Source: Candidatus Pacearchaeota archaeon
GTDB taxonomy: Archaea > Nanobdellota > Nanobdellia > Pacearchaeales > GW2011-AR1
Assembly: GCA_018304025.1 (NCBI GenBank)
Contig: JAGVXA010000004.1
Location: 9,719 to 73,718 of the forward strand
Direction of reading: 5' to 3'
Length of the DNA: 64,000 bases
This document shows, in pieces, positions 4,319 to 62,922 of the stretch. The notes beneath the pieces are model-generated. The model searched no databases, was not told the origin of the DNA, and saw nothing but the letters and a program-made list of their open reading frames with translations. The position numbers and the translations under genes were made by a program. Numbering within the stretch: the first letter of the stretch is position 1; the number at the start of each line of letters is the position of its first letter.

Positions 4319-4439
4319 TTGTTTGATACGAAAATAAAAATTATGCGGGGATCTTCGTTCGCCGCAGCGAGGAGCTTCGCAGTCGGCGTTAGCCAGACGA
4401 GAAAGCCCGCAGCAAGAGCGAATCGAAGAAAAATAAAAA

Positions 4440-4571
4440 TGCGGGGAGTAGGATTCGAACCCACGAAGGCACTAAGCACACAAGATTTCTCAAGGAAATC
4501 TCATCTTAAATTTTCCCAACGGAAAACCGACTTCTTAAGTCTTGCCCGTTTGACCACTCCGGAATCCCCGC
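4440..4571 (-). tRNA. tRNA-Leu(TAA) with ~47-nt anticodon-loop intron
   Basis: On the minus strand the acceptor stem GCGGGGA pairs with TCCCCGC. A 3-bp D-stem (CCG/CGG) with a long D-loop is typical of class II tRNAs. The anticodon stem CAAGA with loop CTTAAG(A) gives anticodon TAA. Its pairing strand TCTTG appears only ~47 nt downstream, implying an intron at 37/38. The T-arm GTGGG-TTCGAAT-CCTAC and a long variable arm follow. No CCA is encoded, and an oligo-T (ATTTTTATTT) follows the 3' end. Confidence 0.6.
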
Positions 4572-4795
4572 ATCGATGCGAGACAAAAATAAAGAACAAA
4601 TTACTCTTTTAAACATTTCCTATCACAACACCTTATTAACTTCAACTATCAAATAAAATATTCGGAAATTGCTCTTCGAGCAATTTCTCGATTCTACCAA
4701 ACTAATTATTTCCCCCAAGATTCTACCAAAATAATTATCCCCAACTACAATATTATTTTTATACTTCGCCAATTTCTCCGAATCCTAAAAAGAAA

Positions 4796-5179: not shown

Positions 5180-5181
5180 TT

Positions 5182-5589: not shown

Positions 5590-5621
5590 AAGTTTAATAT
5601 TAATAGACAGTTAAAATATCT

Positions 5622-6119
5622 TTAGGACATTTCAACTTTGCAAACGTGCCTTTTAGTATCGCAGACGCATTTTCCTCTTCGCCCGCCGCATCGCGAATCT
5701 AAATTAATTTTCAAATCGCAATTAGGAGTATAAATAACTGAGTCACAATCAGGCAGAGTAGTGCAGCTTTCCTCTCCTTCGGCAAACGAACATTCCCGCG
5801 TGGCCTCATCGAGCACATTGTATTCAGTTACGTAATAATTAACATCTGTCTCTTCTCTCACAATTGTTTTATTGCAATTTTCAGTGTACTCAATACTCTC
5901 GCAATAATACTGGTTCGGATATTCGATAAAAGCAACAGGCACGCATTCATTCGGATCATAGCACGTCGCCGGCGCGCAGTTAAAATTAGTTTGGCATTCG
6001 TAAGCGTTATCCGTCGGCTCCCACTGCATCCAAATCATCACAGCAGCAATCACAGCCCCAACCAAAAACATCGCGACAATAACCCATATCGTCACCTGCG
6101 CGCTCTTTTTTATCTTCAT
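5622..6119 (-). CDS. Membrane-anchored Cys-rich extracellular protein
   Basis: A start at MKIKK is followed by a TM helix and an ectodomain with ~20 Cys (CQTNFNCAPATC...). Confidence 0.45.
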   Translation of the reverse strand: MKIKKSAQVTIWVIVAMFLVGAVIAAVMIWMQWEPTDNAYECQTNFNCAPATCYDPNECVPVAFIEYPNQYYCESIEYTENCNKTIVREETDVNYYVTEYNVLDEATRECSFAEGEESCTTLPDCDSVIYTPNCDLKINLDSRCGGRRGKCVCDTKRHVCKVEMS

Positions 6120-6169
6120 ACACAATAATAAAAAATAATGTTTATATAGTTAATGAAATTTATTGAACG

Positions 6170-6364
6170 ATGCCAAACAGATTAATAAAAAAGAAAAAAG
6201 ATAAAACCCCTTGGGGAGTTTTGGGAGTTATTCTTTTAATCGGAGGAATTACAGCAACAATACCCTTGGCTCTAAAAGGAGGGCAATATCTAATAGGAAT
6301 TTTAATTACTGCTCTTGCAGTAATCACAGGAATACTTTTAATCGCCTGGGCATTCAGCAATTAG
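6170..6364 (+). CDS. Small two-TM membrane protein
   Basis: There are strongly hydrophobic helices (GVLGVILLIGGITATIPLAL ... ILITALAVITGILLIAWAF). The antisense ORF 6160..6360 is a less convincing alternative. Confidence 0.3.
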   Translation: MPNRLIKKKKDKTPWGVLGVILLIGGITATIPLALKGGQYLIGILITALAVITGILLIAWAFSN

Positions 6365-6631
6365 ATGAACCTCAAAATAAAAAAGAATCTTCTTGACTTG
6401 CATTTTCAGAAATATTTAACTTTTCTCTCGTTATCCGTCGTGATATCTTTTACTTATTTGATTGCCGTAGTAATCGCAGTATTAACAGCCCAGATAAAAC
6501 TAGACAGTTTTTTCTCAATGTCAATATTATTTATTTTTTCAACAGCAGTATTAGGCCTATGTTCTTTTTTATTTTTCAAATCTTTGTTTCATTTAAAGAA
6601 CATAATAAACAGTCTCAAGGAATTAAGTTAA
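6365..6631 (+). CDS. Small membrane protein
   Basis: Hydrophobic TM segments directly follow the previous small ORF. Confidence 0.3.
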   Translation: MNLKIKKNLLDLHFQKYLTFLSLSVVISFTYLIAVVIAVLTAQIKLDSFFSMSILFIFSTAVLGLCSFLFFKSLFHLKNIINSLKELS

Positions 6632-6815
6632 TTTATCTAAAATCCTATCATTATAAAAAAGTAATGACAGAAATAACCTAATCTGGAATAACCTTTCAAA
6701 TGCAGTATTATTTATATAACAGTCAGAATTACGGTTAACTTATGAAAAAGACGAACCAAGCCAAATTAATAACTTACAATTTATGTTTATCAACTGAAAG
6801 GAGGTTTTACAAATA

Positions 6816-8000
6816 ATGAAGAAAACATTAAGCTTTCTAGTAATGGCTATATTGGCATTATCTGTAATGCCTTCAGTTTTCGCAGTTAGCGTAGGTGGAG
6901 GTATCGGCATAGATATTCAACCAGAGGAGTTCGCTCCTTTAATATGGCAATGCGACTCAAGACTTGTTCTTGAAGACTGCGTTGAAGCAGGAAGAACAAC
7001 TGACTGCAACCAAGACCTTTACGAAAGAATAACAAACTATGCTTTCGAAGGAGAACAAATCGGTTGGGAAATTCTTGTTATGGATAAGAACAAGATTGAA
7101 GAAATCGAGGATGTTGTCGGAACAATCGGCTCAAGCCAAGGAACAGGCAACGATATTGAAGTTGAATGTGACGAAATTGCAACAGAATTTGATGATGGTG
7201 ACAAGCTTCCAGTATCTTGCGAGGCAAGAATTGGCGAAGAGAAATTAACAACTTTTGACTCAGACACAATGGGATTCTATAGATGTCTATTCACTGTTGA
7301 AACACCAGACTCAATGGCTGGAGAATATTTCCTTACAGCAGAAGTAATTTCTGTTGACGGAGAAGCAATAATGGCAGAGAACGAATATTGGTTCTTGAAC
7401 CCTGTGATTGCTTTAACAATAGACGGAGATGTTGAATTCGCAGAAGTTAGACAAGGCTCTGTAGCTTACTCAAATACAATTTTGGTAGGCAATGATGCAG
7501 AAGCTGGCTCAGGCGTTTTGCTTGACATGTTCATTTCAGGAACAGATTTCTACGACTCAGATACATCTGGCGCAATGTGCCCATCTACAAATCACTTGAA
7601 GCTATCTCAAGACTTGAGAAGCCAAGCTAATTTGGGAGCAAAGCTAACTTCTGGTCCATCGCAGAGCACAAAGTGCAATGCAGGAACAGGAGGATTAACT
7701 GGCGTTGACAACAACGACCACTTATGCTACTTTGCAACAAGCGGTGCTTACAGCACAGCAGGTGCACCAAACGCTGATGTAGAAGGTTACAGACCGATTG
7801 TTTACAGCGATGCTTTCACAAGAGATTTCTACAATGATGCAGAAATTATCTGGAACGGTGCTCTTACCGGCGGATACTCCGCAGGAAACACACTAACACC
7901 AGGCAGTGAAATCGCTATGACATTCAAGTTAGGATTACCAGAGCCATGCGTTGGAAACTTTGATTCAGGAGATATATTCTTCTGGGGCGAAGCTATCTAA
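6816..8000 (+). CDS. Secreted protein (signal peptide MKKTLSFLVMAILALSVMPSVFA), probably abundant surface protein
   Basis: A strong SD (AAAGGAGG) sits 8 nt upstream. There is a Sec signal peptide with AxA cleavage. The codon and GC usage is somewhat richer than the neighbours. A TATA-like TTATTTATATAA lies ~110 nt upstream. Confidence 0.6.
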   Translation: MKKTLSFLVMAILALSVMPSVFAVSVGGGIGIDIQPEEFAPLIWQCDSRLVLEDCVEAGRTTDCNQDLYERITNYAFEGEQIGWEILVMDKNKIEEIEDVVGTIGSSQGTGNDIEVECDEIATEFDDGDKLPVSCEARIGEEKLTTFDSDTMGFYRCLFTVETPDSMAGEYFLTAEVISVDGEAIMAENEYWFLNPVIALTIDGDVEFAEVRQGSVAYSNTILVGNDAEAGSGVLLDMFISGTDFYDSDTSGAMCPSTNHLKLSQDLRSQANLGAKLTSGPSQSTKCNAGTGGLTGVDNNDHLCYFATSGAYSTAGAPNADVEGYRPIVYSDAFTRDFYNDAEIIWNGALTGGYSAGNTLTPGSEIAMTFKLGLPEPCVGNFDSGDIFFWGEAI

Positions 8001-8195
8001 TAACCAAAATTTATTTTTTATTTTTCCTTTCCCTTCTTTTTTCGGGAAAACAGAACGAGGTGAATTCTAGAGGCGACAGGCGAGTCCTGTAAAACTCAAA
8101 ATAGAAAGACAAAAACCAAAATGAAACAAAACAAAAAAACCATAGCGAAAGAAGATAGAAATAATTTAAAAGCCAGCTCATATCTCGTAAACAAA

Positions 8196-9875
8196 ATGAA
8201 ACCAACAAGATTCTTCTTCGCATTAATTATCTCCCTCTCAATTTTATTAACTCTCTCCCTAGTCAGCGCAAATCTTCTCTACTGTCTTAGCGACGGAGAA
8301 AAGCTCCCCCCGAATTGCGTCGGAAGCGCCTGCAAATACACTTGTGATTTACATTCAGGACAGGGATTCTGCCAGATTTGCACAACTAACTTAGGAACAC
8401 CGGGAGTAGACCCATTATCTTGCGGCGATAAAACCTGCAGTTTTCTCGACGGTAGTGCTGGCGGCGGAAGCGTAGATCCAAACCCTCCAACTCTAGTAAT
8501 AAACACTCCTTCAAACGGAGAAACATACGATTCAGGCAGAGTAATATTTGACTTGTCAGTAGACTCTGCGTCGAGAATAGAATATCGCTCTTTAACAGAC
8601 ACAAGCTGGCACAAACTCTGCGACGGCTGCACAAAGTACAACAGGCACGTCTCTGTTGAAGAAGGGCAAAACCAAATAATAATCAAGGCAACAAAATTCA
8701 GCAACAATATGGAAACTGAAAAAACAATCACATTCAACGTGGACTCAAAAGTGCCCGAGTGCAAGTCCTCAACTCCCCTAAATAATCAATACTCCAACGG
8801 CAAATTCACAGTTGAATACTCCGAAGCAAATTTAGACAAGGTAGAATTATATTACATGGGCCAAGCAGACACCAGCTACAAAAAAGTTTTGTTAACCTGT
8901 CTCCCCGGAGAAGACCAAACTTGCTCAGCAAATGTTAATTTAGACCAATATAAAAATTCCCAGGTGTTGTATTACTTCAATGTCTGCGACAAAGCATCCT
9001 GCGACTCCTGCAAGAGCCAGATAGTAAAAGTAACTTCAAACACACCGCCAGTTTTAACTGTCGCCCCGATTCCATCTCTCAGCACAGACAAGAAAATTCT
9101 TTTGGACATTCAAGCAGACAAATTAGTTTCAATGTATTACATAGACAATTCAGACATAGAACAAAAACCTAAAACTCTCTGCAAAAACTGCAATTCCTAC
9201 AACAAGTTAAGAAGTTTTAACGACGGAGAATGGGACATCACAATTTACGCAGAAGATGAAAACCAAAAGCAGGCAGTTCCTTTCAACGCAAAATTCTTCG
9301 TCGACACAAAAATTCCGATAATCCAGAAAACATATCCTAAGAACAACGAACTGACAAACGGATTATTCACAGCAGTATTCAAGGAGCAAAATCCAGAATC
9401 TCTAGTCTTGCGTTATGGCGAAGATAAATTCCCAGTCGACATTTCCAAATGCACCGAATTCAAGAAGAAATATACTTGTGACGTAGACATTTCAACAAAT
9501 GTAAAAAAATACGACGGCGAAATGATATCTTACTGGTTTGAATTAACAGACAAAGCAGGCAATGAAGCAAAATGGAAAACAATTCCGACAACAATCGACA
9601 CCACTCCCCCTGTCTTGAACGAATTAATAAAAGAGCAGGACGAAAAGAAAGTTGAATTCGCTTTGGACATAACAGAATTAAACTTCGACGAAGTTCTTTA
9701 TATTATAGACCAAGAATCAGATTCAAAAGCAAAATGGAAACCCCTGTGCACAAAACTCAAAGGAGAATTATGCATTAAAACAATAACATTCAGGGAAGGA
9801 ACGCACAAAGTTGACTTCCAGATTTTTGACAAAGCAGGTAATTCAATAGGAACGCAGGAAACAATAACAGTTTAA
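8196..9875 (+). CDS. Secreted Cys-containing protein with repeated Ig-like domains ending in DKAGN motif (alternative upstream start 8121)
   Basis: The signal peptide is MKPTRFFFALIISLSILLTLSLVSA. It has repeated modules containing KLCDGCTKYNRH / TLCKNCNSYNKLRSF and a terminal FQIFDKAGN. It is paralogous to 37603..39861 and 42864..43781. Confidence 0.6.
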   Translation: MKPTRFFFALIISLSILLTLSLVSANLLYCLSDGEKLPPNCVGSACKYTCDLHSGQGFCQICTTNLGTPGVDPLSCGDKTCSFLDGSAGGGSVDPNPPTLVINTPSNGETYDSGRVIFDLSVDSASRIEYRSLTDTSWHKLCDGCTKYNRHVSVEEGQNQIIIKATKFSNNMETEKTITFNVDSKVPECKSSTPLNNQYSNGKFTVEYSEANLDKVELYYMGQADTSYKKVLLTCLPGEDQTCSANVNLDQYKNSQVLYYFNVCDKASCDSCKSQIVKVTSNTPPVLTVAPIPSLSTDKKILLDIQADKLVSMYYIDNSDIEQKPKTLCKNCNSYNKLRSFNDGEWDITIYAEDENQKQAVPFNAKFFVDTKIPIIQKTYPKNNELTNGLFTAVFKEQNPESLVLRYGEDKFPVDISKCTEFKKKYTCDVDISTNVKKYDGEMISYWFELTDKAGNEAKWKTIPTTIDTTPPVLNELIKEQDEKKVEFALDITELNFDEVLYIIDQESDSKAKWKPLCTKLKGELCIKTITFREGTHKVDFQIFDKAGNSIGTQETITV

Positions 9876-10018
9876 TTTTTGTAATTATTTCATTTTATCT
9901 TCATCAATTATCTTTCAGTCATTAAAACAGAATCCCAAAGTATGATTTTACCAAGATAATTATCCCTCTTCCAATACACAACCAAATAACTTTTAAACTT
10001 CCTTATCTAAAAAAATAA

Positions 10019-10501
10019 ATGGATAAAAAAATTATAATCTCCTTAGCCATAATAGCGTCGGTATTATTGATTTATTTTTCAAATCCTCCTTTAATCAGAA
10101 CCCAGATTGAATCTCCTCAAAAACAGCTTCCAGAAAAAACAAAACCTGTAGCAATAACGCAGGAAAACTTCCCAGTTTATCTCCAGCAAAATTCATTAAT
10201 TAAAGAGCTTCCGAAAAAAGCGATTCTCTCATTAAGACTTTATAATTTTGACACAGGCGAAAGAAGATGGGTCGGAGATTACACAATAGAAAAAGATTCT
10301 GTCTCAGAAGGATTGCCAGAATCTCCGGACGCTGAAATTATAATCCATTCGAAATATGCAGGAGAACTAATAAATAATTTTTGCCAAACAATCCAGAATG
10401 CAAAAACCAACAGAGATTTTGCGTTTGAATTAAAAGCAGAAAAATCCTCTCTGCTGTGGAAATACAAAGGCATGATGAAATATAGAGATTGCTTCAGTTG
10501 A
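10019..10501 (+). CDS. Membrane-anchored hypothetical protein
   Basis: An N-terminal TM anchor (IIISLAIIASVLLIYF) is followed by a soluble domain. Confidence 0.4.
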   Translation: MDKKIIISLAIIASVLLIYFSNPPLIRTQIESPQKQLPEKTKPVAITQENFPVYLQQNSLIKELPKKAILSLRLYNFDTGERRWVGDYTIEKDSVSEGLPESPDAEIIIHSKYAGELINNFCQTIQNAKTNRDFAFELKAEKSSLLWKYKGMMKYRDCFS

Positions 10502-10548
10502 CTTTCAAAACCACTAAGTTTAAAACCTGCAATTTGATTAACTATAAA

Positions 10549-11349
10549 ATGACAGTAAAATCATTGAAAAGAACACAAGGAAAAATACCGAGAGAAAGAT
10601 TTTATAAAAATCCGGCAGCCCACATATCAGAAGAAAAGCGGGCGTATTTGTGTTCTCCAGAAGCCAGAAAAAAATATGTAGACATTTCTTACGAAGAAGC
10701 AGAAAAGCTCGGGCAACTAGAAGAATTTTATCGTTTGTTTGCATTGGGCGAGCTGGCTCATCTCGCCGCGACAGGCGCCAGCGGAGAATCAGGCAAATTT
10801 GATTATTACGCAAAAGAATTCGACAGCATGCACGATAAAATCGCCAGAAAAAACACAGGATTAGTTTACAAAATGATTGGTGGGCAGCCTAAAACAGATC
10901 TTGACGATTTAGAATCAGAAGGATTTTATGCTTTGGCAAGAGCAATAGATAAGTTTAATCCATGGTCAGGATATCACTTTTCAACTTATGCCTGCTTTGC
11001 AATAATTCGCGCCGTCGGCAGAAGCAAAAAAAAGCAGTATAGAAACAAAGAAAGATTTAGGCTTTTAACAGATCCTTCCGCAGCATTGGACATTCCAGTA
11101 GAAAATTACGAGCTGTCTTCAGACAATACAGAACGTTTCCTTAAAAACCTCCCAAAGATTTTGATAAACCCAGATGTCCTAGATTTTCTCGATGCTGAAG
11201 TTATATCATCGCGATTTCCAAAAACAGGCGAAAAAGAAAGTCTCGAGTCAATAGGCAGGAGAATTGGTTTGTCAAAAGAAAGAGTCAGGCAGATTCAGAA
11301 CAAAGCATTAGTAAAATTAAGATTCAAATTAGAAGAGTTAGTAGTTTAA
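10549..11349 (+). CDS. Sigma-70 family RNA polymerase sigma factor-like protein (regions 2 and 4); alternative start 10489
   Basis: GFYALARAIDKFNPWSGYHFSTYACFAIIRAV resembles sigma-70 region 2.2-2.4 (GLmkAveKFdp.rGykFSTYAtwwIRqai). LESIGRRIGLSKERVRQIQNKALVKLR resembles region 4.2 (LEEvGkqfgvTRERIRQIEaKALRKLR). Confidence 0.5.
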   Translation: MTVKSLKRTQGKIPRERFYKNPAAHISEEKRAYLCSPEARKKYVDISYEEAEKLGQLEEFYRLFALGELAHLAATGASGESGKFDYYAKEFDSMHDKIARKNTGLVYKMIGGQPKTDLDDLESEGFYALARAIDKFNPWSGYHFSTYACFAIIRAVGRSKKKQYRNKERFRLLTDPSAALDIPVENYELSSDNTERFLKNLPKILINPDVLDFLDAEVISSRFPKTGEKESLESIGRRIGLSKERVRQIQNKALVKLRFKLEELVV

Positions 11350-11360
11350 TTTTCAGCAAT

Positions 11361-11639
11361 CTAATATCTTCTCATGACAAATAACGCTTTCAAATTTTTA
11401 TTCCTTGTTCCGTCGCTGTGAAAAGCTCTTCTGTCAAGAAGAACGTGAAATGTCTCTTCAGGATATTGCTCGTTCCAATACTCCATATCTTCTTCTCTTA
11501 CGTTTGATATAAATTCATATCCCATTTCAAGAAGTCCCGCATGGAATTTTCTGGATTTTCTCTCCCCTTCTGTCATTTCTTCATCTTGCTCTCGCAAGCC
11601 AATTCTCGTTTCTTCAGGAAAATTCTGTCTTGAGTTCAT
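11361..11639 (-). CDS. Hypothetical protein
   Basis: The ORF is 92 aa and acidic. I see no recognisable motifs. Confidence 0.3.
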   Translation of the reverse strand: MNSRQNFPEETRIGLREQDEEMTEGERKSRKFHAGLLEMGYEFISNVREEDMEYWNEQYPEETFHVLLDRRAFHSDGTRNKNLKALFVMRRY

Positions 11640-11930
11640 AGAATTTATTTTAAAGTGCGCTATTTAAACTTTTTTGAAAACCGATATTGTAAACTTCTCG
11701 GGATAAATTTTGAATTCTCTGCTGTCATTAAATTTCTAAGGTTTATATAAACAGAATAAAATGAGATACCTGCGATTAATCGAGTTCAAGATAATTATCT
11801 GTAATCTGATATCTTTGACAAAAAAGAAATTTTGTTTTATCTCGTTAACTTGACAGTATCTTGAAAACCGCAGAATCATCTAATCTCTAGCAATTCGAAT
11901 TCGGACAATCATTCTGTTGTTTTCACAAAT

Positions 11931-12320
11931 TTATTTTCTCTTCCAATAAACTAATCCCAGAGAAATTGCAATAATTCCTAATATCGTCAGAAAGCTGTTC
12001 AGTAAATTAATTTTTACGCCGATTAAATTCAGATAAAAAACAGCGAGGGGAACAATAGCAATTGAAAGCGCAAATGAAAGTGCAATTCTCTCAATCCAGT
12101 CAATCGCGCCGTTTTCTTTTTCTTTAGAATCAAATTCTTTCGTCCTCGGAAAAAACACAAAAGTCAAGATAAATCCCGGCAGAAATAAAACATAAACAGA
12201 ACCAAAAACAATTCTAAAACTCTCGGAATATTCAAGCGCCCCGAATCCTCCAATTACCAAGCTTGCGACTGCTAAAACCGCAATAGCAATTCCAGTCCGA
12301 TAAAGCCATTTATTTTTCAT
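11931..12320 (-). CDS. Small integral membrane protein (4 TM)
   Basis: It shows a hydrophobic helix pattern. Confidence 0.4.
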   Translation of the reverse strand: MKNKWLYRTGIAIAVLAVASLVIGGFGALEYSESFRIVFGSVYVLFLPGFILTFVFFPRTKEFDSKEKENGAIDWIERIALSFALSIAIVPLAVFYLNLIGVKINLLNSFLTILGIIAISLGLVYWKRK

Positions 12321-12370
12321 TAAAAACCCAAATCAAAAACGTATTTAAGCCTTCCGAAACTGGTAATACT

Positions 12371-13729
12371 ATGAAAAAATATGCAACTCTCTTGCTGGCA
12401 ATTCTGGTAGTTTCATCAGCTTTTCTTAATTTCCTTCCCCATCAAAATTACAAATACCCTTTGCATGTTGACGAATGGGTTCATTTTCAATTTTCAAATC
12501 ATCTTTCAAACAATTCTCCGTTGTATCTCGGCGGAGAAGTTTATAGTTTAGAAGGAGGATTCCATTTTTTGCTCGCCACCTTGAATTCCCTAGGAATCTC
12601 TTATCTGATTATGTTCACTTTTTTCGCTTCGCTGGTGACAATTCTGATTTGCTTGGGGGTTTTCATCCTCGCAAGAAAATTATTTGGCGAAACAGCTGCG
12701 TTGTTTTCTGTATTGTTCGTCGTGCTTCTAAAAAGTACAGTTGCTCTTCTTGGTCCAGTGTTCTTGGTGCCGATGGCAGTAGGACTTTTTTTTATCCCTG
12801 TCGCTGTCTATTTAGTTCATATAAAATCAAGCGCATGGGTGTTGATTCTTTCGTCTACTCTGATAATTCATCCTCCGACAGCTTTGGCTCTTTTACTTTT
12901 AATCAACACGCAATTCATAACCGAAAAAAAATTCAATGCCAAAAACATTTTGCTTCAGGGATTATCCGGTCTAATTGCCCTCCCATTCTATCTTCCTTTC
13001 TTTTTTGAAAGAGGCGCAGATTCTGTCAACGCCCTGTCTTTCACAATTATTTCCGGCGCGCTGTTTATCCCCAGCTTCTTAGGATATTTCATAACAGCGA
13101 TAATCGCCGCAGGCATATATTTTTCAACATCAAAAAAGAAATATTTTATAGCTGCCTCTTCTCTCGTCTTGCTCTTTTTCATTATTTTATTTTACAAATT
13201 CAAGATTGAATTTTTCCTGCCCTACAGGCGAACGCTGATGTATCTGTTTATCATCTTCGCAATTTCTTTCGGCTTGGGCTGCGCAGAAATCATCAGCTTG
13301 TTCAGGTCTAAAAAAATAAAAATAATAATCACAATAATTTTGTCAGTCCTTATTCTTGTATTTTCTCTTCCGCAAAAATTAGAGTCTAACTCTCCGATTT
13401 ATCACATAATTAACGAAGAAGATTTCAGGGCATTGAGTTACATAAAAGAGAACACGCCCGAAGAATCAATCGTTTTGGCAGACCCGTGGAAATCAAACGC
13501 AATCACTCCAATCGCAGAAAGGCAGGTTTACTCGCGAATTGTTCAGGGCCCCAGCAGGGAATCAGAAGCTAAAAACGAACAAGCCAGAATCTTTTTTGCA
13601 AACAATTGTCAGGACACCGCTTTCTTAGAACAAAATAATATCTCTGTAATCTACGGAAAATGCAGCTCGCAAAATCTGCAGGAAGTTTATCCTAATGTTC
13701 ATCGTTTTCAGTCAGCAGCAGCCAGCTAA
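12371..13729 (+). CDS. Polytopic membrane protein, putative GT-C-fold glycosyltransferase (PMT/ArnT/Stt3-like)
   Basis: There are more than 10 predicted TM helices. The first extracytoplasmic loop motif HVDEWVHF resembles the DE/DExxH motif of GT-C enzymes. It lies at the start of a glycosylation gene cluster. Confidence 0.45.
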   Translation: MKKYATLLLAILVVSSAFLNFLPHQNYKYPLHVDEWVHFQFSNHLSNNSPLYLGGEVYSLEGGFHFLLATLNSLGISYLIMFTFFASLVTILICLGVFILARKLFGETAALFSVLFVVLLKSTVALLGPVFLVPMAVGLFFIPVAVYLVHIKSSAWVLILSSTLIIHPPTALALLLLINTQFITEKKFNAKNILLQGLSGLIALPFYLPFFFERGADSVNALSFTIISGALFIPSFLGYFITAIIAAGIYFSTSKKKYFIAASSLVLLFFIILFYKFKIEFFLPYRRTLMYLFIIFAISFGLGCAEIISLFRSKKIKIIITIILSVLILVFSLPQKLESNSPIYHIINEEDFRALSYIKENTPEESIVLADPWKSNAITPIAERQVYSRIVQGPSRESEAKNEQARIFFANNCQDTAFLEQNNISVIYGKCSSQNLQEVYPNVHRFQSAAAS

Positions 13730-14096
13730 GCAAGGCAATAATCAATCCGCCGAGAATTGAAATCACATAGCCAATCCATCCCAGTTCTTTCAGCTTCAGA
13801 AAAATAATCGCAGCTCCTAAAACTCCCAGCCCGATAATCAGTAATTTGTCCCTTAGATTAAATTCTTCTTTTCTTTCTGTTTTCTCAACAGGAAACAAAA
13901 TACTCAGCGCCCCGAAGACAATAACAATCAGCATGAACCAATTCACGTTGATTCTTGTGTCTATAAATGACGGATAAAATTCCTTGACTAGAAGAACAAT
14001 CAAAAACAAAATCAGCAGCGTCTGAAAAACATAAGAAAAAATATACTTGGCATGCTCCCAAACGCGCCTTTCTTCGTAGCTCAAATTGAATCTCAT
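13692..14096 (-). CDS. Small integral membrane protein
   Basis: It has 3-4 TM helices. Confidence 0.4.
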   Translation of the reverse strand: MRFNLSYEERRVWEHAKYIFSYVFQTLLILFLIVLLVKEFYPSFIDTRINVNWFMLIVIVFGALSILFPVEKTERKEEFNLRDKLLIIGLGVLGAAIIFLKLKELGWIGYVISILGGLIIALLSWLLLTENDEH

Positions 14097-14097
14097 T

Positions 14098-15285
14098 TTA
14101 TCCTATCTCTCCAACAACTTTAGATATATAATCATTTACACTTCCGGCGTACTGCTCAGATTCAATGTACCAGTCATTCCCGCCGTGCAGCAATTCCGGC
14201 TCCTCAACAACAATAAAATATACCGGTGCGTATCCGTCGTCGTAAGGAGTGTAAACCCAGAACACGTTCCACAAAAATGAATTTTTAAACTGGGCAGATT
14301 CTGGCGAATAAACAATTATCGCTTTTTCCTCTTCGGGATTATAAAATATTTCGTATTTCGAATCTGAAACATCGCTTGCGCTCCCGCTTCTCGTTGTCAC
14401 CTTCTGATTCACATTAATTTTGTTTAAAACATTTTCTCGCAGTTCATCAGAAATATCTGTCGTCGCGCTCCCGCTTTTGTTAAGGATAATTTCAGGAGTT
14501 TGTTCAATCTCTACAACTTCGTTGTCATTTTTCAGCCAAGTTCCATTCTCCAGCAAAACATCATAGCCTTTCATTGTAAACCCGTAAGCGAAATCCCCCA
14601 GCTTTTCATTTTCATCTGCGTTAAACTTGATTTTGAAATAAGGTTTTTTCTTGTAAAAATTATAATCAAATCCCGCCCCTTCAATTTCTCCGCTCCCCAG
14701 CAAAACATCAACTTTCTTCTCGTCCCAGGACGTTTCTTCGTTGACTGTTATTTTCTCCAAATCAGTAAACCATCCGATTCTTGTAACTTCCTCGGGATTT
14801 GTCGTGAGCGGTTCTAATCTTATTTCTTTATCTAGAGAAATAACAGTATACGCCTCTCCGTTTTCATCAAAAACAAGTTCTTTGTAGCTTTCCTTTCCGA
14901 ATAATCTGTCTTCTTTTCCGTCGTATTCCAGTTTGCTTTCCCATCCAGTCAGGGTGAATAAATTAGTTCCCTTGTAATAAATATCTCCGGGCAATCCAGT
15001 CGTGTCTTTGACAATCACGTCAATGTCCTTGAACTTTGCTTCAACCGGCGGGGTAGTCGCAAATGAAATAATCAAGACAGCAGCCAATACCAAGACAATG
15101 CTTCCCAAGACAATCCATTTTTTGTTGATTGACTTTTCAACTCCCGAGATTTTTTCCCTCGTCTCTTCCTTAATTTGAGAAGAATAAATTTCATGAAACT
15201 CTGCGGGCTTGGCTGCTTTTTTCTGGCTCTCTTTTCTCCACTTCTCAAATTCTTCTTCCCATTCGTCTTTTTTTCCTTTGTTCAT
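14098..15285 (-). CDS. Type-II membrane protein with large extracellular domain
   Basis: A charged cytoplasmic N-terminus is followed by a TM (WIVLGSIVLVLAAVLIISF) and a ~320-aa ectodomain. Confidence 0.5.
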   Translation of the reverse strand: MNKGKKDEWEEEFEKWRKESQKKAAKPAEFHEIYSSQIKEETREKISGVEKSINKKWIVLGSIVLVLAAVLIISFATTPPVEAKFKDIDVIVKDTTGLPGDIYYKGTNLFTLTGWESKLEYDGKEDRLFGKESYKELVFDENGEAYTVISLDKEIRLEPLTTNPEEVTRIGWFTDLEKITVNEETSWDEKKVDVLLGSGEIEGAGFDYNFYKKKPYFKIKFNADENEKLGDFAYGFTMKGYDVLLENGTWLKNDNEVVEIEQTPEIILNKSGSATTDISDELRENVLNKINVNQKVTTRSGSASDVSDSKYEIFYNPEEEKAIIVYSPESAQFKNSFLWNVFWVYTPYDDGYAPVYFIVVEEPELLHGGNDWYIESEQYAGSVNDYISKVVGEIG

Positions 15286-15365
15286 ATAATTACGTTTCAG
15301 TAGTGCATATTTAAACTTTGCTCACGATTAGCAACATTTAAAATCTTTAACGCTCTATACTCTAT

Positions 15366-15575
15366 ATGTCAAAAACAACACAGGAAATAAACTACGATTA
15401 TTTTATGGAAGCAGATATTAGCGGATTTATCGGAGAGTGGATTGCAGTTTGTGAAAATAAAATTATCGCCCATGGGAGAAACTTGAAAGAAGTTGTAGAA
15501 CATGCAAAAAAAGTTTCTCAAGGAAAGAAATTCCTTCTTGCTCGCGTGCCAAGCAAAGAGGCGATGATATTCTAG
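15366..15575 (+). CDS. Small protein, DUF5678-like (putative antitoxin-like)
   Basis: The segment GEWIAVCENKIIAHGRNLKEVVEHAKK...KFLLARVP resembles short archaeal/bacterial antitoxin-like proteins. The call is weak. Confidence 0.3.
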   Translation: MSKTTQEINYDYFMEADISGFIGEWIAVCENKIIAHGRNLKEVVEHAKKVSQGKKFLLARVPSKEAMIF

Positions 15576-15744
15576 AATGAGTTTAACATTTAAATACAAA
15601 AGAGTGAAAAGACCAAACAACACAGAGATTAAGTCTCCTTTTATTCTTTGATAAGTTCGTTATAACTTTCGATCAAAAAGAAGAAAAAGTAGTTTTGAAG
15701 TATAATCCAAATAATTAGTTTTTGCTTTTTATCAGCACTCAAAT

Positions 15745-15905
15745 TTTCAGAAGCAGTGCGATACTGTAAACTCATCAGGATAAATCCTCCAAGTTGTCAT
15801 ATCTTAAACCTCCAAGGCATATCAACAACGACGATAAATCAAATGCAGATAATTATTTTGAATTCTTGATGAAACAGAAACTTTGTCATGTCTTGCTGTC
15901 TTGAC
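15745..15905. repeat. ~160-bp dispersed repeat, copy A (copy B at 28135..28300; partial third at 28626..28690)
   Basis: About 85% identity over ~160 bp, including gatactgtaaact(c/t)atcaggataaa...caagttgt(c/t)atatctta...gataaatcaaat(g/c)cagataattatttt...gaaacagaaa...tttgtcatgtct. Confidence 0.65.
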
Positions 15906-15955
15906 AAGTATCCAGAAGCACTCAAATTTATATATTCGAAAAATCAAATTGTTTT

Positions 15956-17011: not shown

Positions 17012-17066
17012 TTCTTCTCAGGGCTTTTTTCCGAGGGAAGTTTAGATAAGTAAGATTATAAATTTA

Positions 17067-54044: not shown

Positions 54045-54539
54045 TTAGATTACATCTATTTTCTTAGGTTCGCTAATCGCATTTTCGCATATAATTTCTT
54101 TTCCGTAGACGAGAATTACCGGGATTGCTTTGATCGCGAGTCCCTGAGTAGCCAAATCAATACCAACATTACTCGGATTCGCATTATTATTCTTGAATTC
54201 TTTCGAACCAAACTCAGTTAAATCAGTTGCGTCATCGTCATCGACACTTATAGTCTTATCATCAATAATAAAATTTATTTTTGATAGAGCTCCTGCACCG
54301 TTATTTCTTGTTACAATAATTGTCAGAATCGGATCTGCGCCCGGACCAGGATCACTGTTAAATTCAGCTTTCGTAACTTCAATATCAAAATCTCTGCAAG
54401 CTTCATTAAACTCTATCGAGCTTTTCAAATCATCTATCATTGGAAAGAAAAAACTAGCAACAACACCAACAGCCACAATCACAAGTAAAACAATTAACAC
54501 ACTAGTTATAATTGAAGACAATCCTCTTTTTTTTATCAT
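54045..54539 (-). CDS. Archaeal type-IV pilin-like protein with class III signal peptide
   Basis: The segment MIKKRG|LSSIITSVLIVLLVIVAVGVV has a KRG cleavage motif followed by a hydrophobic stretch and no Glu at +5, which is archaeal-type. Confidence 0.5.
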   Translation of the reverse strand: MIKKRGLSSIITSVLIVLLVIVAVGVVASFFFPMIDDLKSSIEFNEACRDFDIEVTKAEFNSDPGPGADPILTIIVTRNNGAGALSKINFIIDDKTISVDDDDATDLTEFGSKEFKNNNANPSNVGIDLATQGLAIKAIPVILVYGKEIICENAISEPKKIDVI

Positions 54540-60105: not shown

Positions 60106-62922
60106 TTAAGAAAAAATTATATTAAATTTTTTACTCCTTATTTCAAATGAAATTTCGTTTTTCCCCAAACTTTTGTCGTCGGTAAATTCAATTTTGCTGG
60201 AGTTGGTTCTCTCTTTCAAGAATTCAATGTGCTTTTCCAGCATCTCTTGGACATCAGAACTAACGTGTATCTTGGTAGAAATCATCTCGCCTTTCTTCAA
60301 TCCTCTGTTCTTTCTTTCCGCCTGGATTTTTCTCGCTAATTCCCTCGCAAAACCCTCTGCCTCCAGTTCAGGCGTCATCCTAAAATCGAATTTAACATTA
60401 AATTCTTTGCCTTGCTTAATCTCTATCTCTTTAACATTCAATTGTCTTGCAATTATTTCTTTTAGATTATCAGGCAAATCAAGACTTTCTGTCACAGCCA
60501 CAGTTGCTCTCTTCAATGGCCATCTCAATCCAACTCCTTCTTTGTCTCTTATCCCCAGCCCCTTTTCAACAACTTCAAAAATTATTTTGAATCTTTCTTC
60601 AAGCTCTGCGTCAATTTTCTTCTCGTCTGGCGCAGGCCAGTCGCATAAATGAACAGATTTCTCATCCACAATCTTTTTTTCCAATAACTTCTGCCAAATA
60701 TCTTCTGTGCTGAATGGAATAATCGGCGCGCACAATTTCATCAGCCCGGCATAAACTTCTTCCAAAACAGATAAAACTTCCGAATCATTTTCAGCTAATC
60801 TGTCTCGAACAATCTGGATATATCCTCTGCTCAAATCATTAAGCCAAAATTCCTGCAGCGCGCGAGTAGCCAGATGCGGGTGCAGTTCTTCCAGCTCCGA
60901 AGTAACTTTTTTAATCAAAGAATTAAATTTGGAAATAATCCATTTGTCTTCCGCGTTTTTTATTTTATTCTTTCCGCTCTTTACAACAAGTCTTTCTATA
61001 TTTTGCAAAATATTCAAGTTGCTTTTCGGCTCCTTCAAAACACTAAACCCAAATCTTAATTCCTGCGAAGGATCCTGCAGGCAATAGAGCAATCTCATAG
61101 GGTCTGCGCCGATTTTTTCGACAGCGTCGTCAAACCAAATCGCGTTCCCCTTGCTCTTGTGCATCTCATCTCCCTTCTCGTCTTTCAAACTTTCGTAGCC
61201 GAAAATAGATTTAAACGGCGCTCTCCCGTCCAAACAAACCGACGCCCAAAACAAGGCATTGAACCATCCCCGATACTGCCCAGGCATGTTTTCTGAAATC
61301 AAGTCAGCAGGAAACCATTCCTCCCAATATTTTTTGTCTTTCAAATAATTCAGAGTAGAAAACGGAACAATTCCAGCGTCGAGCCACGCGTCTCCGACGT
61401 CAGGAATTCTTGAAACATTTTTCCCGCATGAAGCGCATTTGATTTTAATTTCGTCAATCCACGGGCGGTGAATTTCCGGCAGGGAATCAACTTTCTTTTT
61501 GTCGACGGATTTAGCTTTCAATTCCTCCAAACTTCCGATGACTTCAACTTCTCCGCACTCGCATTCCCAAATCGGCAGCGGCAGTCCCCAATATCTTTTT
61601 CTGGAAATCAGCCAGTCGCCCATATTATTGAACCAATCCTCTTGCCTTCTCCCCCCATATTCAGGATACCATTTTATTTTTTGATTCTCGTCAATTAACT
61701 TCCCCCGCATTTCCGAAGATTTAATATACCATTCATCAACTAATCTAAATACAAGTTCTTCTCCGCATCTCCAGCAATGAGGATATCTGTGTTTTATCCT
61801 AGCTGTTTTGTAAACAAATCTTCTCTGCTCTAAATCGTTTAAGACAGCAGTATTAACATCAGAATATTTTTTCATGCTAAACTCTCCAAATCCAACTTCA
61901 TAAATTCCAGCGTCGTTCAACGGCGAAATCGCCGGCAGATTTTCTTTTTTCCCTAAGTCAAAATCCTCTGCTCCGCACCCAGGCGCAATATGAACAATTC
62001 CAGTTCCTTCTTCTCCCGACGCCAAATCCCACAAAACAACCTTGTGCGGAGATTTTTTTTGCGATTCAAAATCAGAGTAAGGCATAAGATATTCCATCCC
62101 CTTCAATTCTCTCCCTTTTTTCCTGTCTAAAATTTTATATTCTCCTTCAAGTTCTTCAAGCCGCGATTCAGCAAGCCAATATCTGAGCCCCTCATTTTCA
62201 ACCTTCACATAATCAATATTTTCATTGACAGCAATTGCAACATTTGCAGGAACTGTCCACGGCGTCGTCGTAAAAATCAGGAAATAAGTATTATGTTCTC
62301 CTTTCAAAGGGAACTGCATAAATAAAGCAGTATGAGTGACTTCTTTGTAACCTTCTGTCGCAATATCATGTTTTGAACTCGCAGTCCCGCACCGCCAGCA
62401 CCAAGGCACAGCGTCTTTTCCTTTATACAATTCTCCTCTTTCAAAATATTTTTTCAATAAAAACCAATTGTGCAAATTATTAGCATCAGTCATCGTGTAA
62501 TAGCTGTTGTCCCAATCCATCCACTGCCCAAGCCGGACAGATTGTTCTTTTTGTATCTTGGAAAATCTCTCAACTCTTCTTCTGCACGATTTCACAAATT
62601 TCAAAACACCAAACATCTCAATGTCTTCCTTGTCTTTCAATCCCAAATCTTTTTCTTCTTCTCTTTCAACCCAAAGCCCCTGGCAGTCAAAACCGTTTTG
62701 GTATCTCATCTCATGCCCCTGCATCGCCTTGAATCTGTGGAAAACATCTTTGTAAGTTCTTCCCCACGCGTGATGCACGCCCATCGGATTATTCGCAGTT
62801 ATCGGCCCGTCGATAAAACTCCATTTTTTCTTCCCGCGATTTTTCTGCCTGAGCTTGTCAAATATCTTTTCTTTCTCCCAGAATTTCAGGATTGCTTCTT
62901 CTGCCTTGTTAAAGTCTAACAT
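60106..62922 (-). CDS. ileS: Isoleucyl-tRNA synthetase (class I; archaeal/eukaryotic-type C-terminus without Zn finger)
   Basis: The HIGH-region analogue is PITANNPMGVHHAWGRT. The motifs GFDCQGL (compare GWDCHGLP), GTGIVHIAPGCGAEDF, WCWRCGT and KMSKS-like MHKSKGN are present. The C-terminus lacks the bacterial Cys4 finger. Confidence 0.75.
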   Translation of the reverse strand: MLDFNKAEEAILKFWEKEKIFDKLRQKNRGKKKWSFIDGPITANNPMGVHHAWGRTYKDVFHRFKAMQGHEMRYQNGFDCQGLWVEREEEKDLGLKDKEDIEMFGVLKFVKSCRRRVERFSKIQKEQSVRLGQWMDWDNSYYTMTDANNLHNWFLLKKYFERGELYKGKDAVPWCWRCGTASSKHDIATEGYKEVTHTALFMQFPLKGEHNTYFLIFTTTPWTVPANVAIAVNENIDYVKVENEGLRYWLAESRLEELEGEYKILDRKKGRELKGMEYLMPYSDFESQKKSPHKVVLWDLASGEEGTGIVHIAPGCGAEDFDLGKKENLPAISPLNDAGIYEVGFGEFSMKKYSDVNTAVLNDLEQRRFVYKTARIKHRYPHCWRCGEELVFRLVDEWYIKSSEMRGKLIDENQKIKWYPEYGGRRQEDWFNNMGDWLISRKRYWGLPLPIWECECGEVEVIGSLEELKAKSVDKKKVDSLPEIHRPWIDEIKIKCASCGKNVSRIPDVGDAWLDAGIVPFSTLNYLKDKKYWEEWFPADLISENMPGQYRGWFNALFWASVCLDGRAPFKSIFGYESLKDEKGDEMHKSKGNAIWFDDAVEKIGADPMRLLYCLQDPSQELRFGFSVLKEPKSNLNILQNIERLVVKSGKNKIKNAEDKWIISKFNSLIKKVTSELEELHPHLATRALQEFWLNDLSRGYIQIVRDRLAENDSEVLSVLEEVYAGLMKLCAPIIPFSTEDIWQKLLEKKIVDEKSVHLCDWPAPDEKKIDAELEERFKIIFEVVEKGLGIRDKEGVGLRWPLKRATVAVTESLDLPDNLKEIIARQLNVKEIEIKQGKEFNVKFDFRMTPELEAEGFARELARKIQAERKNRGLKKGEMISTKIHVSSDVQEMLEKHIEFLKERTNSSKIEFTDDKSLGKNEISFEIRSKKFNIIFS

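Follow-up and report, generated by a model that had tools for sequence, protein, structure and literature searches.

Initiation of transcription is defined in bacteria by sigma factors, whereas archaea rely on TBP, TFB and TFE. When a genome-reduced archaeon keeps a sigma gene, gives it a new promoter and even duplicates it, the question arises whether a bacterial initiation factor can join archaeal transcription, or act against bacterial neighbours. A sigma gene of an archaeon lies at 10549..11349 on the forward strand of the 64,000-nucleotide stretch of DNA analyzed here, which we call the window, and the host, a tiny archaeon from groundwater, is assigned to the Pacearchaeota (Nanoarchaeota in GTDB usage). 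An earlier note on this DNA had recognised regions 2.2-2.4 and 4.2 of sigma-70 in the gene product and had offered two readings, an archaeon with a bacterial-type sigma protein or a CPR-type bacterium with features that look archaeal.

The open reading frame starts with ATG, has its stop codon inside the span and encodes 266 amino acids, and its translation contains both peptides quoted in that note, DKFNPWSGYHFSTYACFAIIRAV and LESIGRRIGLSKERVRQIQNKALVKLR. The exact protein (266 aa) is deposited as MBS3088390.1 under an NCBI name that begins "sigma-70 family" and gives Candidatus Pacearchaeota archaeon as the source. In Pfam the Sigma70_r4 model matched aa 210-258 with 45.5 bits (cut-off 24.1, E 5e-12) and the Sigma70_r2 model matched aa 104-164 with 34.4 bits (cut-off 24, E 1.9e-8), both above threshold, and Sigma70_r3 and Sigma70_r1_2 gave no match in the protein even at E<=1. 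Among the NCBIfam models, the sigma-2 plus sigma-4 superfamily model TIGR02937 was passed with 48.1 against a cut-off of 42.9, and the protein scored far under the cut-off of every named sigma equivalog (46-64 bits against 354-582 for the RpoD and RpoS equivalogs). An AF2 model (pLDDT 89.2) has the sigma-2/sigma-4 architecture and retrieved SigA, RpoD and RpoS chains from holoenzyme structures as top Foldseek matches, and a phmmer search against solved structures gave RpoS and SigA as best.

The protein consists of an N-terminal helical region of approximately 100 amino acids, a sigma-2 domain and a sigma-4 domain, without sigma-3. The sigma-2 domain (regions 2.1-2.4, aa 96-165, 10834..11043, forward strand) was delimited from the Pfam r2 match and the phmmer alignment with RpoS 7vf9_F, where it aligns to RpoS residues 124-172, and it is modelled with pLDDT >88. 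In a hand alignment to E. coli sigma-70, made via the RpoS alignment, the equivalents of F419, Y425, F427 and Y430 are in place, W433/W434 correspond to F and A, and the group 1/2 positions Q437 and T440 are also substituted. In region 2.2 the equivalents of D403 and E407 are retained in the window protein, and the relative P0002 has Ala at the E407 position. The sigma-4 domain (regions 4.1-4.2, aa 209-262, 11173..11334, forward strand) was placed from the Pfam r4 match and from RpoS, SigA and HrdB alignments, and the recognition helix of its helix-turn-helix is SKERVRQIQNKALVKLR. Only about 43 residues, with one helix in the AF2 model, link sigma-2 to sigma-4. The N-terminal region (10591..10773, forward strand; helices at aa 15-110 modelled with pLDDT >86) carries, according to the alignments, a motif of a low-GC group of sequences that we call archaeal-type, RF.KNPAAHI...R...YVDIS..EAE.L.E..NFYRLF.LG..AH.

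The gene has an archaeal-type promoter (10511..10525, forward strand) with the TATA box TTTAAAA at 10519-10525 and an A-rich BRE-like stretch before it. The TATA box lies 30 nt ahead of the ATG at 10549, which implies a leaderless mRNA. The sequence AAACC..TA.RTTTAAAA is retained in the related loci L003, L006 and L088 although the remaining spacer has diverged, and four loci have kept the TATA promoter before the sigma gene. Because of this conserved TATA box, the equal length of the NCBI protein, and the alignment of the relatives P0002 and P0003 from residue 1, we take ATG 10549 as the correct start. The pattern extends to the rest of the window, as the earlier note had proposed when pointing to BRE/TATA-like promoters: of 52 TATA-like hexamers, 33 begin between -31 and -27 relative to an ATG, and together they cover 26 of the 40 window genes. 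In positions 1-20000 of the window, 59 matches to sigma-70-type promoters were counted against 48.5 +/- 7.0 expected, which is no enrichment. Since leaderless promoters with the TATA box at about minus 29 are a signature of the archaeal basal machinery, the CPR reading fails.

Further features of the window agree with an archaeal host. A tRNA-Leu(UAA) gene with a 47-nt intron at position 37/38 is found at 4440..4571 on the reverse strand; it was missed by ARAGORN and found by Rfam (RF00005, 40.7 bits) as a match whose variable arm is long and whose anticodon loop carries an insertion of approximately 50 nt, and its fold and a reading by hand place the intron after position 37. The ORF at 54045..54539 (reverse strand) starts MIKKRGLSS... 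and matches TIGR02537, the archaellin/type IV pilin N-terminal domain, with 24.6 against a cut-off of 20. The IleRS encoded at 60106..62922 (reverse strand) is of type 2 with a DUF5915 C-terminus, and after ileS its next-best models are the eukaryote/archaeal-type MupA and MupB. The tRNA with its anticodon-loop intron, the KRG-type pilin signal peptide and the archaeal/eukaryotic-type IleRS C-terminus were all listed in the earlier note, and all three hold. TrmB and DUF1616 genes are also found within the window, and P0211, a relative of the sigma protein, is labelled Nanoarchaeota archaeon at NCBI.

A binning or chimeric-contig artefact, which had also been considered, is excluded. An independent assembly (L170) contains a 20.8-kb segment that is 100% identical to positions 549-21349 of the window, the sigma protein is found on at least 24 independently assembled contigs with identical gene order, the synteny survives in diverged relatives, and the GC content of the sigma gene (0.385; GC3 0.32) is like that of the window (0.380). 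With NCBI labels of Pacearchaeota and Nanoarchaeota, the archaeal features and the independent assemblies, the sigma-70-family protein sits on a demonstrably DPANN contig. It is clear that ORF 10549..11349 encodes a genuine sigma-70-family protein and is a chromosomal gene of a DPANN archaeon, which is the first of the two readings.

The closest relatives of the window protein belong to a sigma family of approximately 268 aa from Planctomycetota/Phycisphaerae, as judged from the best 80 of 552 confirmed matches in GTDB species genomes, where the exceptions were a 2-kb contig with a Fimbriimonadaceae label and an unclassified MAG. The named matches of a profile search were all Planctomycetota or Phycisphaerae, and a bacterial gene context was confirmed for P0029, P0032 and P0041. 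The archaeal-type group comprises about 13 low-GC clusters at 50% identity, with intact ORFs of 245-296 aa in these diverged lineages and a common derived N-terminal motif (present in P0205, P0206, P0207, P0211, P0220, P0247, P0248, P0253, P0258 and P0329); an archaeal origin is labelled or supported by context for about half of the group, the rest being placed by motif and amino-acid composition alone. The Planctomycetota N-terminus is homologous yet distinct (LWYVP..R.RTK...LF.ALHTCAYRA). Tandem sigma paralogs occur at two loci, L169 and L180. By neighbour joining, the window protein clustered with its two nearest relatives in 100 of 100 bootstraps, and 13 of 13 archaeal-type sequences fell inside the Planctomycetota-type ingroup in 195 of 200 bootstraps. 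Monophyly of the archaeal-type sequences is weakly supported by the same method (25% for all 13 together, 46% for at least 12), and such distance trees do not tell one transfer from several. A scan of JGI metagenomes with the archaeal motif returned two short contigs only. Viral origin of the gene was rejected because an IMG/VR scan gave merely generic sigma factors with at most 36% identity.

From these data we consider it probable that the sigma gene was acquired from the Planctomycetota-type family and domesticated, and that it most likely serves as an accessory transcription regulator, through a mechanism that we infer. Similarity, trees and composition suggest that an ancestor of the lineage gained the gene horizontally from the approximately 268-aa family, which is ubiquitous in Planctomycetota, especially in Phycisphaerae, and which has a sigma-1.2-like N-terminus, sigma-2 and sigma-4, without sigma-3. 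After the transfer the gene would have adopted the base composition of the host and been put under a leaderless promoter of the archaeal TBP/TFB type, and it would later have been inherited vertically with occasional tandem duplication, evolving faster than its neighbours. The protein is probably not a general initiation factor, since the genome uses archaeal promoters and would not be expected to encode a bacterial core polymerase.

In the archaeal-type group, residues L105, P138, G141, F144, S145, T146, Y147 and R258 are 100% conserved in 13 of 13 sequences, so that the sigma-2 motif P-x-x-G-x-x-FSTY is invariant in the group, and F136 is retained in 85% of the 13 sequences as compared with 13/13 for F144 and Y147. 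Positions conserved in bacteria are kept in the archaeal-type group at a fraction of 0.90 in regions 2.3-2.4 and 0.78 in region 4.2. At the same time the sigma gene is the least conserved gene of its syntenic block, with 46-53% identity versus 66-89% for the neighbours and dN of 0.36-0.48 versus 0.09-0.22, a rate 2-4 times that of the neighbours. YN00 gave no dN/dS values for the sigma pairs due to saturation, and the NG86 omega values of 0.42-0.56, although below 1, are rough because dS is near saturation. Some archaeal copies are altered in the recognition helix and at the E407-equivalent of region 2.2, and among them the recognition helix varies at residues that bacteria keep invariant.

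These rates could also be produced by a slowly decaying relic, a transferred sigma factor that has no partner polymerase and drifts, functionless, under relaxed selection. Besides the position of the gene as the fastest-evolving of its block, the variation at bacterially invariant recognition-helix residues points in this direction, and so does the fact that Sigma70_r2 escapes Pfam detection in part of the archaeal copies, P0211 and P0258 for example. We nevertheless find a relic unlikely: the ORF is intact and of constant length in some 13 diverged lineages, the eight positions that include the FSTY pocket are fully conserved, a dedicated TATA promoter is conserved, tandem duplicates have been kept in two lineages, and omega is below 1. 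DPANN genomes are moreover highly reduced, and useless genes are not expected to persist in them. For the regulator that we prefer, it should be said that the fastest divergence in a syntenic block is also what relaxed selection on a little-used gene is expected to give.

The genes around the sigma gene were compared among the related loci. Directly upstream, an ORF at 10019..10501 (forward strand) with its own conserved TATA promoter encodes a 160-aa protein with an N-terminal membrane anchor that has no match in Pfam, NCBIfam or PADLOC. It is 69-71% identical in L003, L004, L005, L006 and L088 and is syntenic only in these closest relatives, as it is not found beside the sigma gene in L169, L177, L179 or L180. 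As it lacks a cytoplasmic domain, this protein is not a credible anti-sigma factor. Upstream of it, at 8121..9875 (forward strand), a 584-aa secreted Ig-like surface protein is encoded (Pfam Big_13, 34.7 bits), which in tblastn searches is 81% identical to L006, 66% to L003 and 31% to L177. L177 and L180 have proteins of the same Pfam pattern upstream of the sigma gene, and a homolog or analog of this Big_13 surface protein, of about 560-584 aa, thus precedes the sigma gene in five lineages (the window, L003, L006, L177 and L180). Downstream, a DUF1616 membrane protein gene (11931..12320, reverse strand; Pfam 73.5 bits) is syntenic in L006 (89%) and L177 (65%) by tblastn. In L179 the sigma gene lies within a Polysacc_synt/GT4/GT2 cluster that is orthologous to 13.7-23.5 kb of the window. 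A 92-aa downstream ORF was rejected as a conserved partner, since the 93-aa ORF that takes its position in L006 is not homologous to it, and with the 160-aa anchored protein and this non-conserved ORF as neighbours, no anti-sigma candidate is found beside the sigma gene. The anti-phage role suggested in the earlier note did not find support either, as PADLOC shows just a similarity of the sigma domain to MzaA (37.8 bits) and the NCBIfam MzaA model scores 45 against a cut-off of 800; membership in a defence system was rejected on these grounds. The association of the sigma gene with its neighbourhood could be mere inherited gene order among related genomes.

If the protein acts as an accessory regulator, the sigma-4 helix-turn-helix would bind duplex DNA, and the sigma-2 pocket with its strict conservation (P..G..FSTY) would hold a partner on which selection still acts. 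Candidates for this partner would be single-stranded or promoter DNA, or a surface of the archaeal polymerase resembling the clamp coiled-coil, and a plausible target would be the cell-surface and glycosylation gene neighbourhood in which the sigma gene recurs. A stronger version, which we regard as quite unlikely, is that the sigma-2 module (P..G..FSTY and region 2.2) has been kept for docking onto the clamp coiled-coil of the archaeal RNA polymerase and for capturing non-template DNA; the result would be hybrid, sigma-assisted initiation or regulation on a polymerase of the TBP/TFB type, and alternative specificities would come from the tandem paralogs, whose recognition helices differ. If the sigma protein did touch the archaeal polymerase, this would be the first case of a sigma factor being reused across domains; as a mere DNA-binding regulator or a decaying relic the protein would be a modest example of gene transfer into DPANN.

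The protein might also be directed at another cell. If the archaeon lives as an episymbiont on a bacterium, perhaps on a Planctomycete, sigma could be delivered to redirect the RNA polymerase of the host in the manner of a phage sigma factor. Such an effector would account for the specifically Planctomycetota-like family, for the best conservation in those parts that would touch the bacterial core polymerase and the -10 element, for a fast evolution as in genes in conflict, and for the position among surface and adhesin-like genes. However, neither a signal peptide nor another secretion signal is seen in the N-terminus MTVKSLKRTQGK..., the genes next to sigma include no secretion machinery, and Pacearchaeota have no known bacterial host, nor is a transfer route known. 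The proposal is pure inference and appears decidedly improbable.

The earlier note had further suggested that the sigma protein is a partner of an RsbW-like GHKL/STAS pair at 23.8 kb, so that the GHKL ATPase (23773-24630) and the STAS-like ORF (24632-24913) would be anti-sigma and anti-anti-sigma factors of the RsbW/RsbV type. The two genes are adjacent to each other, and they do have weak matches to HATPase_c (24.2 bits) and to the 'STAS-like' DUF4325 (19.1 bits), but both are under the Pfam thresholds of 26.4 and 23, respectively. A sequence search of solved structures gave the GHKL protein no match at E<=1, and for the STAS-like ORF (93 aa) it gave only ribosomal protein L17 at an insignificant E of 0.87, so that SpoIIAB/RsbW and RsbV-type chains were matched by neither. 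The pair is part of a toxin-antitoxin/defence islet (MNT/HEPN, PIN, DUF2283 and ParE genes) at a distance of 12.4 kb from the sigma gene, and it was not seen on those contigs of relatives that were read; the proposed partnership is thus unsupported. Since anti-sigma factors were moreover reported to be lacking in DPANN (Castelle et al. 2021, PMC8204110), partner switching by this pair is very improbable. As for an ordinary bacterial sigma on a bacterial (CPR-like), chimeric or mis-binned contig, sigma factors are otherwise a bacterial hallmark and several proteins of the window contain Ig-like and cadherin-like domains of a 'bacterial' kind, but this reading is already effectively refuted by the archaeal promoter architecture of the whole window including the sigma gene, the non-enrichment of sigma-70-type promoters, the tRNA intron, pilin signal, TrmB and DUF1616, the independent assemblies and synteny, and a GC and GC3 like those of the host, whereas the donor family comes from GC-rich genomes (L087, GC 0.53).

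Among known systems, the closest solved structures by sequence and fold are those of groups 1/2 (RpoD/SigA, RpoS), to which regions 2.2-2.4 and 4.2 can be aligned and with which the region 4.2 recognition helix (K/R-E-R-x-R-Q) is conserved. In contrast to these, the window protein has no sigma-3, no region 3.2 finger and no Pfam match for region 1.2, and its short linker joins the two domains, so it does not classify with groups 1/2. With group 4 (ECF) it shares the sigma-2 plus sigma-4 layout and the match to TIGR02937, but its sequence is nearer to groups 1/2, it has the N-terminal helical extension of about 100 aa, and no co-transcribed anti-sigma factor was found. Phage-encoded and nuclear-encoded plastid sigma factors are likewise genes in genomes without a matching bacterial core polymerase, and this is presumably the situation of the window sigma gene as well. 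In those cases the infected host or the plastid supplies a bacterial-type polymerase, and to our knowledge none is known for a DPANN cell. The viral relatives of the window protein are only generic sigma factors.

The family of approximately 268 aa in Planctomycetota/Phycisphaerae is like the window protein in length and architecture, is 30-44% identical to it over most of the protein, and has the signatures DxFxPWRGxxFSTYAC..I.RA and LSKERVRQIQNxALxKLR in common with it. Both lack the W433/W434 pair as well as sigma-3, the absence of W433/W434 being a family-wide trait. The Planctomycetota members are nearly invariant at 59 positions (median 58/59 kept), of which the four archaeal-type copies tested keep 39-48, and they differ further in the N-terminal motif and in occurring in GC-rich genomes, often beside sodA. 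At the Planctomycetota loci there is no anti-sigma neighbour, just this conserved gene order with sodA. The annotation of its members does not go beyond 'sigma-70 family RNA polymerase sigma factor', and we found no publication specific to the family.

A sigma-70 gene in a DPANN archaeon is already known, and the window protein itself has an NCBI entry that names it a sigma-70 family protein from Pacearchaeota. Castelle et al. (2021, Front Microbiol, PMC8204110) described sigma-70 genes in DPANN as protein family fam00359, ruled out mis-binning and reported TBP, TFB and TFE, with emphasis on Woesearchaeota and with no donor lineage given; the earlier note therefore overstated the novelty in calling either of its readings notable. 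The window protein may belong to fam00359; the supplementary files consulted mention neither that family nor sigma. Common to those genes and ours are a bacterial sigma-70-family protein in a DPANN genome, the exclusion of mis-binning, and the lack of anti-sigma factors. To this we add the probable source in the Planctomycetota-type family, the motif at the N-terminus, the promoter of archaeal type, the accelerated rate and the paralogs in tandem. The case is now narrowed to a donor family of about 268 aa, an archaeal-type group with a diagnostic N-terminal motif, a set of constrained residues and, as a candidate target, the surrounding surface and glycosylation genes.

The sigma-70-family open reading frame at 10549..11349 (+) has 266 codons, and both peptides quoted for it in the earlier note lie in its translation, the coordinates being exact. 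The Pfam search proposed there placed both domains above threshold, Sigma70_r4 at residues 210-258 (45.5 bits; gathering score 24.1) and Sigma70_r2 at residues 104-164 (34.4 bits; gathering score 24), and gave no match for regions 1.2 and 3 even at E<=1. The protein passes the generic sigma-2 plus sigma-4 superfamily model TIGR02937 of NCBIfam (48.1 vs 42.9) and falls far under every NCBIfam cut-off for named sigma factors (RpoD, RpoS, RpoH, FliA, SigB and others). An AlphaFold2 model based on an alignment of 73 sequences is confident (mean pLDDT 89.2) and contains an all-helical N-terminal region with helices within residues 15-110, a sigma-2 domain (118-174), a short linker that is disordered in part and includes one helix (181-206), and a sigma-4 domain (213-265); a three-helix sigma-3 domain is absent from the model. 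The top Foldseek matches were sigma chains of holoenzymes (mycobacterial and Streptomyces SigA, E. coli RpoD, RpoS, sigma-32 and WhiG), and phmmer matched RpoS and SigA among solved structures. These searches and the model show that the sigma observation was correct. The ENA call of the gene (P0001) starts at an internal Met and yields 158 aa, so that it lacks the N-terminal region as well as some of sigma-2; both the promoter and the relatives support the 266-aa call.

NCBI lists the identical 266-aa protein (MBS3088390.1) as [quoted passage not shown], and features of the window support an archaeal origin independently of this label. A TATA-like hexamer (consensus aaGTTTAAATA) begins 27-31 nt upstream of the ATG in 26 of the 40 window genes inspected, and of the 52 hexamers of this kind in the 60 nt upstream of the genes, 33 lie inside that 5-nt span (-31..-27), in line with the BRE/TATA-like promoters listed in the earlier note. 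Hexamers held at this distance typify TBP/TFB promoters whose mRNAs are leaderless, and their regular placement implies mostly leaderless mRNAs in the window. A few genes (6816, 35807) have a GGAGG Shine-Dalgarno-like sequence instead of the hexamer and are probably operon-internal. The intron-bearing tRNA was likewise borne out: Rfam found a tRNA at 4440..4571 (-) with an anticodon-loop insertion of about 50 nt, and manual reading resolved it as tRNA-Leu(UAA) with a 47-nt intron after position 37 (37/38) and a long variable arm; ARAGORN at default settings reported zero tRNAs across the 64-kb window. The pilin-like ORF at 54045..54539 (-), noted for its signal peptide, scores above the cut-off of the archaellin/type IV pilin N-terminal model; the IleRS, whose C-terminus had been called archaeal/eukaryotic, carries DUF5915 there and is similar to MupA and MupB, enzymes of the eukaryote/archaeal type. 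A TrmB/TrmBL2-like regulator and a DUF1616 protein are also encoded. Matches to sigma-70-type promoters were not enriched (59 observed vs 48.5 +/- 7.0 in shuffles). On these archaeal features and the Pacearchaeota label, the alternative of a CPR-type bacterium is rejected.

The check for a binning or chimeric-contig artefact came out negative. Independent groundwater-metagenome assemblies (for example SRR1658343/PRJNA268031 and SRR2177950/PRJNA292723) contain an identical sigma protein on 24 or more contigs, always in the same gene order, and one of these contigs matches window positions 549-21349 at 100%. In GC content the gene (0.385; GC3 0.32) is like both the window (0.380) and the neighbouring genes, the contig of a bacterial-type relative (L087) having a GC of 0.53, and the same archaeal neighbours flank the gene in diverged relatives. 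The independent assemblies, the GC match and the conserved neighbours thus rule out an assembly or binning artefact.

A scan of GTDB, one genome per species with the family alignment as query, gave 552 confirmed relatives. The best 80 of these, 28-42% identical over residues ~87-263, come from Planctomycetota, mostly Phycisphaerae, with two exceptions (an unclassified MAG and a contig of 2 kb carrying the label Fimbriimonadaceae). Among 5.8 billion proteins searched with the profile, 888 matched at E<1e-10; the three nearest relatives score 435-479 bits and the next about 174 bits; from there down the matches are proteins of ~265-270 aa, the named ones all from Planctomycetota or Phycisphaerae. 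No close viral relative was found. Three family members lie in plainly bacterial contexts (MraZ, Nuo, six-domain RpsA, two-component systems, a second full-length sigma). The family carries the signatures DxFxPWRGxxFSTYAC..I.RA and LSKERVRQIQNxALxKLR, and throughout lacks the sigma-3 domain and an equivalent of the E. coli W433/W434 pair. In Phycisphaerae a divergent sodA usually adjoins the sigma gene, the Fe/Mn superoxide dismutase gene being seen at about 26 loci (L007-L086), and no anti-sigma-like neighbour was present beside the gene at Phycisphaerae loci; the adjacency hints at a tie to oxidative-stress genes, or may be mere conserved gene order. A low-GC-type relative of a ~340-aa sister sigma family (P0052, 274 aa) lies on a 16-kb contig (L175, GC 0.44) of nearly all small ORFs without Pfam matches, which also encodes a caspase-like Peptidase_C14 and an HTH_38 protein and may be a virus, a mobile element or a small-genome organism of unrecognised kind.

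Ten further archaeal-type clusters came from an exhaustive HMMER search that covered 1.84 billion cluster representatives. They have a low-GC-type amino-acid composition and share with the window protein the N-terminal motif F..NP...R..RS..F...Y..ISH.EA...E..FFRL.GL..A, homologous to yet distinct from the Planctomycetota motif LWYVP..R.RTK...LF.ALHTCAYRA. One of them, P0211 (MDO8460606.1, [quoted passage not shown]), is 35% identical to the window protein and lies on a contig of GC 0.32, flanked by homologs of the window's 394-aa protein (50%), 584-aa Big_13 protein (31%) and DUF1616 protein (65%). Another, P0258 (contig GC 0.31), is surrounded by orthologs of the Polysacc_synt (55%), GT4 (59% and 49%) and GT2 (50%) genes in the window. 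Tandem sigma paralogs occur on two low-GC contigs, L169 (1069-1539) and L180 (4189-5748), the latter with a 561-aa Big_13 protein upstream of its pair, P0220 and P0248. The recognition helices of region 4.2 differ between these two, YCRETIRKLQEKAIKRLR and VSRQRVYQIKKRAFKKLR. In neighbour-joining trees the window protein clusters with its relatives P0002 and P0003 in 100/100 bootstraps, and 13/13 archaeal-type sequences fall within the Planctomycetota-type ingroup, apart from group 1/2 sigmas, in 195/200. Distance trees give the monophyly of the 13 weak support, holding all of them together in 25% of bootstraps and at least 12 in 46%; a single transfer would be plausible.

The TATA box of the sigma gene itself, TTTAAAA at 10519-10525, lies 30 nt upstream of the ATG, and AAACC..TA.RTTTAAAA is conserved at four sigma loci, the rest of the spacer having diverged or varying in length. 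The gene itself is the least conserved of its syntenic block, with 53% and 46% identity to relatives as compared with 81% for the 394-aa protein, 81% and 66% for the 584-aa protein, 71% and 69% for a 160-aa protein and 89% for DUF1616. Its dN is 0.36-0.48 vs 0.09-0.22 in neighbours, and its NG86 omega 0.42-0.56 vs 0.06-0.27, with dS near saturation. At 59 reference positions conserved in at least 90% of 69 bacterial members, four archaeal-type copies tested keep 39-48 (bacterial median 58). The 13 archaeal-type sequences retain, on average, a fraction of 0.90 of the bacterial-conserved positions of regions 2.3-2.4, 0.87 of those of region 2.2, 0.78 for region 4.2 and 0.31 for the linker, and L105, P138, G141, F144, S145, T146, Y147 and R258 are invariant in 13/13. 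Judged from these rates, identities and retained positions, the protein evolves quickly overall around a strictly constrained sigma-2 pocket, with the sigma-4 helix-turn-helix held more loosely.

These data show that an intact sigma-70-family gene sits in an archaeal chromosome under an archaeal promoter, is related to the Planctomycetota family, and has been retained and sometimes duplicated. Since the promoters of the genome are archaeal, the protein is presumably not a general initiation factor, and the most economical reading would be an accessory regulator whose sigma-4 binds duplex DNA and whose sigma-2 binds a partner still under selection, perhaps DNA or a surface of the polymerase. 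In bacterial sigma factors the flipped -10 base is held in the sigma-2 pocket, which is turned towards the polymerase clamp. The gene recurs beside a large Ig-like surface protein or in an envelope-glycosylation neighbourhood (window, L003, L006, L177, L179 and L180), which is a weak pointer to the regulon, inherited gene order being equally possible. Two less likely rivals to an accessory regulator are a relic under relaxed selection and an effector aimed at the polymerase of a bacterial host. The earlier suggestion of a sigma factor serving as output of an RsbW-like GHKL/STAS partner switch is contradicted, as the GHKL-like ATPase and the 93-aa DUF4325 "STAS-like" ORF are both sub-threshold in Pfam and neither resembles an RsbW/SpoIIAB or RsbV-type chain in the search of solved structures. 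A bacterial or chimeric contig is contradicted by the promoter, GC, assembly and synteny tests.

The GHKL/STAS-like genes lie in a toxin-antitoxin/defence islet (23773-28000) together with a nucleotidyltransferase/HEPN pair, whose nucleotidyltransferase also matches PADLOC PDC-M05A, a PIN-domain protein and DUF2283; at 17067-17324 a ParE toxin is encoded. Between 29292 and 52913 runs a long series of signal-peptide proteins, the majority without Pfam matches and some with LTD, Big_9, Big_13 or cadherin-like domains. Three of them, starting at 40759, 43847 and 50256, open with a similar segment (…DVAY[LI]…), pointing to a family of paralogous surface proteins. At 54582-59105 (-) a serpin (Pfam Serpin, 395 bits) lies close to an 841-aa subtilase (Peptidase_S8), with an isochorismatase-family gene in between; a protease and its inhibitor in a DPANN archaeon may be linked to host interaction.

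The archaeal sigma feature is thus real and was correctly described, and the role of a sigma factor in an archaeon has become a more testable question. The phenomenon was already known from Castelle et al. 2021 (PMC8204110) and from the NCBI annotation of the window protein. That paper describes sigma-70 genes (fam00359) in DPANN, especially Woesearchaeota, excludes mis-binning, states that anti-sigma factors were not found and calls the controlling mechanism unclear. To its passage on these genes our computational analysis adds a proposed Planctomycetota-type donor family, a diagnostic N-terminal motif, a conserved archaeal promoter, rate acceleration with an invariant sigma-2 pocket, and tandem paralogs.
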